From a virus (Duplodnaviria > Heunggongvirae > Uroviricota > Caudoviricetes): 14,330 bases of DNA. Location: IMG/VR virus record IMGVR_UViG_2695420809_000009, positions 1-14,330 of that record, one strand, 5' to 3'. Below, piece after piece: positions 9,738 through 10,687 of the stretch. The notes beneath the pieces are model-generated. The model saw nothing but the letters and a program-made list of their open reading frames with translations. It had not been told where the DNA came from and did not search any database. Each line of letters begins with the position of its first letter. Within the stretch, counting starts at the first letter, position 1. The position numbers and the translations under genes were made by a program.

Positions 9738-10511
9738 TCAAAAATTAGGTGAGTAACGGACCGGGGACATAGCTCCTTTTTTTCTTAATTCATCTGGTAT
9801 TTTTTTTCCAAGATAAAGATTTGCTATTTCAGGTGGGGCTTCTCGACCTTCAAAACCATAGCGAGAACTTTGTGTTGCCTCAAAGTCCGGATCCTCGTCC
9901 CAGTATTTCATCGTAGGGAAATTTTCACGTGTTGATTTGAGCCATTTATCAGCAATGAAAACCCCTCGAACGATCCCCCTTACAGTAGCAAGAATGACTT
10001 CTGCTTGGCTGGCGCGAGAGACATTAATGCGCCAGCTAAATCGAACCGCATCATAAAGCTCTGAATCCTTTGCACTTCTGTTAACGGAAATCATTAATGC
10101 TTTATGATGAAATGTTATGGTTTCGGGTTGATATGTTGCTATCAACTCTTTGACATGCGCGGCGCCGAATTCATTGCTGCCAGCACCATTCATGATATTC
10201 GTTAACCCAGGGTAGGCATCAATAAGTGCTGCTTCAACTTCGTACGCCGTCTTTTCATCAGTCATTCCGTGTCGATGGATGACATGGATAACCTCAAGTC
10301 CTGCTAACCTTATTTCTCTAATTTGCTTTAGCTTGTTGCTCAGTAACTCGTCATCATCAGTCGCTGCCACTTCACCGCGCATATGGGCAAATACGCGGTT
10401 ACCTTTGCCTTTCCCTACATAGAAGGTGCTTCCGTCCCTCGGATCAATCAATCGGTATACATACCAGCCAAGGTGTTCAATTACTCCAGAAGGAAACTCA
10501 GTAATATCCAT
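9738..10511 (-). CDS. GIY-YIG nuclease-domain protein with an unrecognised C-terminal domain
   Basis: From ATG at 10511 (257 aa): WYVYRL (GIY), FYVGKG (YIG), NRVFAH (Arg/His), then EVEAAL and [11 protein letters not shown] (Glu and Asn) in the order of the GIY-YIG catalytic core. About 150 C-terminal residues have no motif I recognise. No obvious Shine-Dalgarno; the ORF-track start at 10562 is a TTG. Confidence 0.6.
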
Positions 10512-10687
10512 TTTGCAATATCTATGAATTATTTGTGAGACGTATATTAATGAACATTGCAAGGGCTCACAACCAGTAGTGTTGAGAAAACCATCGGGGA
10601 AATGAGGCTAAGTCTTTGAATTTACATAGTACAAAAAAGATACTTTTCCTCATAATGTGAATTAATTTTATGTTTCGTTTGATGATT

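Follow-up and report, generated by a model that had tools for sequence, protein, structure and literature searches.

The anti-phage system PD-T4-3 was obtained in a functional selection of the Escherichia coli pangenome, (Vassallo et al., Nat Microbiol 2022, PMC9519451); it is a single-gene GIY-YIG system with direct defense against phages T2, T4 and T6. Liu et al. (Nat Commun 2026, PMC12923530) give ECOR68 as its source strain; they renamed the enzyme CMoRE and crystallized the proteins from E. coli O157:H7 and avian pathogenic E. coli (APEC) O1. Here we describe a gene in a stretch of 14,330 nucleotides (nt) of Caudoviricetes DNA (IMG/VR record IMGVR_UViG_2695420809_000009, positions 1 to 14,330; hereafter the window). 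Judged by its sequence, it is very probably an intact copy of CMoRE, an experimentally proven, single-gene anti-phage restriction enzyme of type IV that cuts DNA of T4-like phages carrying 5-hydroxymethylcytosine (5hmC) or glucosyl-5-hydroxymethylcytosine (5ghmC). The first-pass annotation of the window, made from the letters alone, had proposed a defense nuclease with a separate specificity domain. This agrees with PD-T4-3/CMoRE, in which the C-terminal half is the modification sensor. The novelty it implied was not borne out, because the gene is already known: its function and its C-terminal domain were published between 2022 and 2026, with crystal structures.

In the presence of CMoRE the plating of T2, T4 and T6 drops about 10^5-fold (PMC12923530). 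Binding and cutting in vitro are restricted to DNA with 5hmC or 5ghmC and do not extend to DNA with cytosine or 5-methylcytosine (5mC); T4(hmC) is sensitive, whereas T4(C) escapes. This specificity was shown for both the O157:H7 and the APEC O1 protein. Cleavage needs two modified cytosines, follows the pattern CN11/N9G and leaves 2-nt 3' overhangs. CMoRE forms tetramers, and defense is lost when their interface is mutated (V92S/L96S). The nearest structural neighbor of its nuclease domain is UvrC, and Y17, Y19 and Y31 of the O157:H7 protein are required for defense and cleavage. In most, not all, members of the family a 15-residue acidic loop between helices α2 and α3 covers the active site. 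The binding site for 5hm-dCTP is at the edge of the C-terminal domain, where the 5-OH group is bonded to Y127's main-chain oxygen. The family is spread over 15 classes (all PMC12923530).

A Capnocytophaga homologue, PD-T4-3Capno, reported to be 48% identical to PD-T4-3, degrades T4 DNA but not the unmodified DNA of T4-GT7, and its catalytic residues are required (PMC12366544). It belongs to the same family, and its degradation of T4 DNA is modification-dependent as in the E. coli proteins. At high protein concentration PD-T4-3Capno also degrades Mu DNA, which contains carbamoylmethyl-adenine.

Enzymes of the PvuRts1I/AbaSI family consist of a PD-(D/E)XK nuclease and an SRA-like sensor. PvuRts1I cuts about 11–13 nt and 9–10 nt from the modified cytosine and leaves 2-nt 3' overhangs, a geometry much like that of CMoRE. 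McrA (EcoKMcrA) of the e14 prophage is an HNH nuclease with a different sensor domain, whose target is modified cytosine (5mC/5hmC). In the K-12 annotation it is named 'Type IV methyl-directed restriction enzyme'; like CMoRE it is a single gene, but the two proteins are unrelated. CMoRE shares the 5hmC/5ghmC substrate class with the PvuRts1I/AbaSI family, a comparison drawn by Liu et al. (PMC12923530), and differs from it by a GIY-YIG nuclease and a sensor of previously unseen fold, for which these authors found no homologue in sequence or structure. UvrC, I-TevI and Eco29kI have the same fold of the catalytic core and the same conserved Tyr/Arg/Glu residues as CMoRE, whereas an extra Tyr (GIYxY), the 15-residue acidic insertion and the partner domain set CMoRE apart.

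The CMoRE gene of the window

The longest open reading frame (ORF) at the locus, 9738..10562 on the minus strand, begins with TTG and has 274 codons. It had been taken as the gene in the first-pass annotation. The ORF is real, but translation almost certainly begins at the ATG at position 10511, giving a protein of 257 amino acids (aa), because RefSeq, the PADLOC profile, the crystallized proteins and distant homologues all agree on it. On DNA of E. coli BS15R-A that is 100% identical to the window, RefSeq places a coding sequence of 774 nt (WP_000355484.1). The alignments to the PADLOC profile and to both crystallized proteins start at M1 of 'MDITEF', and homologues from other phyla are alignable only from residues 2–6 onward. 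The in-frame extension up to the TTG is most likely a non-coding, untranslated leader.

Residues 1–256 of the protein match positions 1–255 of the 256-position PADLOC profile PDLC04031 'PD-T4-3' (E = 2.4e-140, 464 bits); the comparison with the ECOR68 system, on which the PADLOC/DefenseFinder model was built, was made through this profile only. Two sequences covering four entries were matched in the PDB, both over the full length: CMoRE of E. coli O157:H7 (9U75/9U8D; 253/257 identical, 98.4%; E = 3.7e-172) and CMoRE of APEC O1 (9U7U/9U7Z; 219/257 identical, 85.2%; E = 1.1e-150). The E-values of the PADLOC and PDB matches lie far beyond chance. The O157:H7 protein and the window protein agree in length, architecture, GIYxY-YIG motif, acidic loop, residues of the dimer and tetramer interfaces and Y127. 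All testable sequence features of CMoRE/PD-T4-3 membership were found in the window protein.

The GIY-YIG motif set noticed in the first-pass annotation is present in the expected order. Read from the translation and numbered from the ATG, it comprises G15-W16-Y17-V18-Y19, F30-Y31-V32-G33-K34-G35, R39/H43, E89/E91 and N104/N107, and it includes the GIYxY-YIG signature with a third Tyr between the canonical two (Y17, Y19 and Y31). Residues 28–110 match the LEM-3-like GIY-YIG family PF22945 above its gathering score (E = 2.1e-14). The classical GIY-YIG model PF01541 stayed below threshold (E = 0.067), so that only PF22945 passes. NCBIfam gave no match to the protein. The C-terminal part of about 150 residues, which the first-pass annotation could not assign, has indeed no match in Pfam or NCBIfam, but it is covered by the PADLOC model and by the published crystal structures. 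No homing-endonuclease or repair domain was found in it by the profile search.

The residues named as functional (Y17, Y19, Y31, R80, V92, L96, Y127 and the acidic run 52–55) all occur in the window protein. Between residues 120 and 257 it differs from the crystallized O157:H7 domain at positions 169 and 197 only, and Y127 is conserved. As for the expected dependence on the catalytic residues, catalytic mutants of the 98.4%-identical O157:H7 protein lose defense (PMC12923530).

No partner gene accompanies CMoRE: it is flanked by the convergent DNA invertase gene pin (copy 2) and by the prophage attachment site attR, a single-component arrangement. Between pin and attR no methyltransferase ORF is present. 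The locus shows the type IV feature of lacking a cognate methyltransferase, the dependence on modification being taken from the literature.

By the mechanism published for near-identical proteins, CMoRE in this host would assemble as a tetramer, that is, a dimer of dimers. The edge of the C-terminal domain would capture a flipped-out 5-hydroxymethyl- or glucosyl-hydroxymethyl-cytosine, and one dimer would read a pair of modified cytosines with a spacing of about 21 bp. Between them, the N-terminal GIYxY-YIG domain would cut (CN11/N9G), leaving 2-nt 3' overhangs. The loop with four acidic residues over the active site would repel ordinary DNA, so that the unmodified host chromosome would be spared, and is proposed to be displaced only by DNA held tightly by the sensor. 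The predicted outcome is that the DNA of invading T-even phages is degraded directly, without abortive infection and with no need of a methyltransferase partner. Resistance to T2/T4/T6-like phages whose DNA contains hmC or glucosyl-hmC is to be expected of strains that carry the CMoRE locus, which bears on the choice of therapeutic phages.

Expression and alternative roles

Several points weigh against an active enzyme. The promoter/terminator scan of the minus strand gave no site at threshold; the CMoRE ATG is not preceded by a clear Shine-Dalgarno sequence, and the search brought up neither a strong promoter nor a strong ribosome-binding site. Rearrangement affects the prophage surroundings in the window: parts of two prophages are joined in this region, and the adjacent P2-like one has a 3.6-kb internal deletion. 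The protein carries four substitutions relative to the O157:H7 crystal protein (T51A, E55D, Q169K and N197H), so the activity ascribed to the window allele is a transfer from a 98.4%-identical protein. Finally, the APEC O1 orthologue defends only weakly from its native promoter (PMC12923530); therefore, the expression level can limit activity. The gene might accordingly be CMoRE by sequence but an intact, silent passenger, unexpressed or non-protective in a decayed and rearranged prophage region.

We consider such a passenger improbable. None of the four substitutions affects a residue reported as functional; E55D lies within the acidic loop, where the O157:H7 protein has DDDD at 52–55, and retains the charge. 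The ORF together with the 180 bp upstream of it matches BS15R-A at 100% identity and O157:H7 copies at 99.5%. The same values hold for window positions 9678–10760, which contain CMoRE and its flanks, in comparison with BS15R-A and an O157:H7 strain, and the gene with 250 bp of flank on each side is 99.5–100% identical to other E. coli copies, including O157:H7. The O157:H7 gene confers about 10^5-fold protection from its native promoter (PMC12923530). The native gene of the clinical isolate NILS69 is active, too, since its deletion renders this strain sensitive to Tevenvirinae phages (bioRxiv 2024.12.20.629700). Furthermore, the identical protein was found in 20,404 blocks of the public collection, which argues for a maintained function.

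A weak sigma-70-like pair, TTGTGA-17-TAATAT, was noted by eye about 45–75 nt upstream of the ATG, below the threshold of the scan, and could serve as promoter. We infer that the window copy of CMoRE may be expressed from this weak promoter of its own and be active in its host. The gap of 60 bp between pin and CMoRE contains a strong hairpin with folding energies of -25.8 kcal/mol (z = -5.3) on the plus strand and -19.8 kcal/mol (z = -3.0) on the minus strand. It is probably a bidirectional terminator shared by both genes, and the terminator scan missed it because it has no T-run.

The Rfam scan of positions 9000–11400 gave sub-threshold matches only and no genuine member of an RNA family. The CssrB match at 9655–9714 on the plus strand (24.5 bits; gathering score 76) is only the pin/CMoRE hairpin. 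'Plastid-psbl-rps4' at 10699–10750 on the minus strand (40.9 bits; gathering score 68) is the opposite strand of the serU tRNA fragment described below, and a tmRNA match is an echo of the same tRNA-Ser fragment and not a real family member.

A homing function had also been put forward in the first-pass annotation. A free-standing GIY-YIG homing endonuclease would spread by site-specific cutting of elements that lack the gene. The GIY-YIG fold is indeed common to CMoRE and to homing enzymes of the I-TevI type, and the homologues of phages OBP and N1M2 were annotated as 'putative homing nuclease' by their depositors. The published cleavage across the T4 genome, however, is modification-dependent without a strict sequence requirement (PMC12923530). 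In addition, Pfam shows no homing-type DNA-binding module and matches only the LEM-3-like GIY-YIG region, and the gene is located between pin and attR rather than within an intron or a conserved gene. A homing role is hence highly improbable.

Hardly any more probable is an abortive-infection or toxin-type nuclease, which would degrade the host's own DNA after infection, or a nuclease serving repair in the manner of UvrC/Cho or LEM-3/ANKLE1. In favor of such readings, PF22945 takes its name from the repair nuclease LEM-3. Exchanging the four acidic loop residues for Ala increases activity, permits cutting of ordinary DNA and makes CMoRE toxic (PMC12923530). The unmutated enzyme, however, lets cells grow normally at a multiplicity of infection above 1, and since protection persists under this condition the defense is direct and not abortive; in infected cells T4 DNA is depleted while the read depth of host DNA is unchanged (PMC12923530). 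The window protein has no UvrC C-terminal module and no housekeeping context. Moreover, most complete E. coli genomes (about 89%) lack the gene: of 5,426 genomes, 615 (about 11%) contain 80% or more of window positions 9600–10900. The homing, repair and abortive-toxin functions are excluded by the published data together with the absence of their defining features, and CMoRE remains the preferred assignment. Reasoning from the raw sequence (GIY-YIG motifs, the position at a prophage end and the analogy to mcrA of e14) had reached the right function. The present analysis amounts to a correct annotation of a common allele of an enzyme with a structure and mechanism known from a 2026 publication; its forward-looking value is confined to the variable slot after pin.

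Distribution and the slot after pin

In E. coli, pin is the fixed neighbor of the CMoRE gene: in eight of ten sampled contexts of the identical protein it lies about 60 bp away and is convergent. O157:H7 strains carry the identical allele, likewise annotated beside pinE. The neighbors on the attR side differ between genomes while the protein stays identical, and CMoRE prophages occupy differing chromosomal sites (beside smpB, paoD or yodB/serU). Homologues of 82–86% identity from other Enterobacterales have no pin within 5 kb, and some are located beside integrases or other mobile-element genes. Full-length homologues of 55–60% identity occur in metagenome-assembled genomes of Planctomycetota, Acidobacteriota, Actinomycetota, Chloroflexota, Cyanobacteria and others. 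Such unusually high identity across phyla suggests that both domains are strongly constrained, that the gene has spread horizontally, or a combination of the two.

Among cultured temperate phages in the phage collection, no CMoRE homologue above 60% identity was found. Lytic jumbo phages (about 250–285 kb) encode full-length homologues with 38–45% identity and 97–99% coverage, namely Serratia phages Moabite, 2050HW and Kodama, Pectobacterium phage vB_ParM-25, Pseudomonas phage OBP and Klebsiella phage N1M2. Their depositors annotated them as endonuclease, homing nuclease or hypothetical protein. These homologues might serve against rival phages whose DNA is modified.

The surroundings described in the first-pass annotation were confirmed. 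Pin copy 2 and CMoRE converge, with their stop codons 60 bp apart. The tRNA-Ser scar consists of 66 nt identical to the 3' part of serU and is attR. It was established by alignment to K-12 serU; ARAGORN found no whole tRNA in the window, in line with the scar being a fragment. The BS15R-A prophage that terminates with the same gene measures about 38 kb and combines an HK97-type head with a baseplate and tail-fiber module of the Mu/e14 type; an intact tRNA-Ser is found at its integrase end. Therefore, the serU fragment of the window is attR, and CMoRE is the last gene of the prophage.

The slot is the positional homologue of the pinE-mcrA slot of e14, as had been supposed. The DNA homology between the window and e14 (89.8%) covers a tail-fiber fragment and pinE and ends at the pin stop codon (window position 9678). 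In the e14 prophage of K-12, the gene next to pinE on the attR side is mcrA, which runs in the same direction as pinE, whereas CMoRE and pin converge. Both slots hold a type IV enzyme that targets modified cytosine.

The occupants of this slot were surveyed in 74 IMG/VR contigs that carry a pin 89–100% identical to the window pin and at least 900 nt downstream of it. The first 2.5 kb downstream of pin (loci L098–L177) were considered, and the sample is biased toward the closest pins. The first gene after pin is CMoRE in 30 of the 74 contigs and McrA in eight. Another eight have an ORF of 396 aa followed by one of 172 aa; these are probably the P2 tail sheath and tube genes, as judged from the pin of the P2-like prophage, which adjoins the sheath gene. 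About 15 other families take the first position in the remaining contigs. They include Septu PtuA/PtuB (L110), a SIR2 protein of 936 aa (L126, L127), Ppl (L158), a PIN_4 protein with transmembrane segments (L129), an HNH-like protein (L140) and a DUF4145 protein (L142). A gene pair of 139 aa and 422 aa in three contigs (L166, L167, L172) resembles UmuD/UmuC by eye. The slot proteins of L106, L132, L137 and L157 have no match in Pfam or PADLOC, and those of L159, L161 and L163, compared with Pfam only, have none there.

Tentatively, and with some doubt on our side, the position between pin and attR in enterobacterial prophages of the e14/SfV type could be a dedicated, possibly uncatalogued swap slot for defense genes. 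A limited literature search found no paper that names it as a hotspot. If this reading is true, the unassigned occupants are candidates for new single-gene defenses. At the other end of the BS15R-A prophage (locus L097, 24152–26403), three hypothetical genes are located between the integrase and the intact serU; they represent a second cargo position of the element.

The chimeric prophage region

The features of the window are compiled in Table 1. Positions 1–8618 follow a P2-like prophage located beside ybjL, whereas positions 7183–10600 are 99.9% identical to the right end of an e14-type prophage. The two pin genes form an inverted repeat of 548 nt (82% complementary) around one segment of tail-fiber cassettes, with crossover sites near 7178–7203 and 9040–9065. 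Left of about 7183 the window corresponds to the P2-like prophage and right of about 9058 to the e14-type prophage at serU, and the 1.9-kb segment between them is common to both. The changeover from one prophage to the other falls inside this common invertible segment or coincides with one of its crossover sites (about 7183 or about 9055). In tfaE, mismatch counts show both reference prophages to be about 90% identical to the window. The join was absent from all 5,426 complete E. coli RefSeq genomes, none of which contains more than 62% of the window in one contiguous piece. It arose either by recombination (through Pin or by homology) of two prophages that lie more than 1 Mb from each other, or as an artifact of assembly.

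Table 1. Coordinates of the features of the window. Positions count from the first letter of the window.
Feature	Position	Strand	Basis or remark
pin copy 1	6554..7126	-	
pin copy 2, pinE-type serine DNA invertase of e14/SfV-type prophage	9123..9677	+	annotated pinE in matching genomes; 89.8% DNA identity to e14 pinE
Strong hairpin in the 60-bp pin/CMoRE gap	9677..9718		RNA fold
CMoRE/PD-T4-3 coding sequence, allele WP_000355484.1	9738..10511	-	257 aa and stop; PADLOC, PDB, RefSeq
Linker and C-terminal modification-sensing domain, about residues 120–257 (boundary approximate), including Y127	9741..10154	-	98% identical to the crystallized domain
N-terminal GIY-YIG nuclease region	10182..10511	-	PF22945 at residues 28–110; Y17/Y19/Y31 present
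Acidic run D52-D53-D54-E55 of the autoinhibitory loop over the active site	10347..10358	-	sequence 'AATDDDELL'
In-frame 17-codon extension up to TTG	10512..10562	-	annotation, profile and crystal constructs begin at ATG
3' 66 nt of serU, tRNA-Ser(CGA), attR core	10688..10753	+	identical to K-12 serU, anticodon arm to CCA
Native chromosomal flank downstream of serU, host DNA outside the prophage	10754..11031	+	97.7% identity to K-12 over 10688–11031
AraC-family regulator	11327..12079	+	
IS3-family integrase-core remnant	12121..12486	-	
N-terminal arm-binding fragment of P4-type integrase	13033..13371	+	
MarR-family regulator, running off the window	13806..14330	-	

In the P2-like part, an ORF of 555 aa (4744..6411, minus strand) fuses the N-terminus of a P2-type tail sheath to the C-terminus of a tape measure protein, with the breakpoint at 5675/5676. 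Compared with the intact prophage of strain NRZ103545, a deletion of 3,591 bp has removed the tube gene, E/E' and most of T. Therefore, the P2-like prophage is defective. An exact 44-nt probe spanning the deletion junction had no match in a set with one genome per species.

Within the invertible segment, positions 7148–7822 (plus strand) hold an alternative C-terminal tail-fiber cassette, which is glycine-rich with runs of G and GS. In RefSeq its counterpart is named 'glycine-rich domain-containing protein'.

Beyond the chromosomal flank of serU, positions 11327–14330 are a patchwork. The same AraC gene and insertion sequence remnant occur in O157:H7, where next come an intact integrase and a P4-like satellite with an 'ABC-three component system'.

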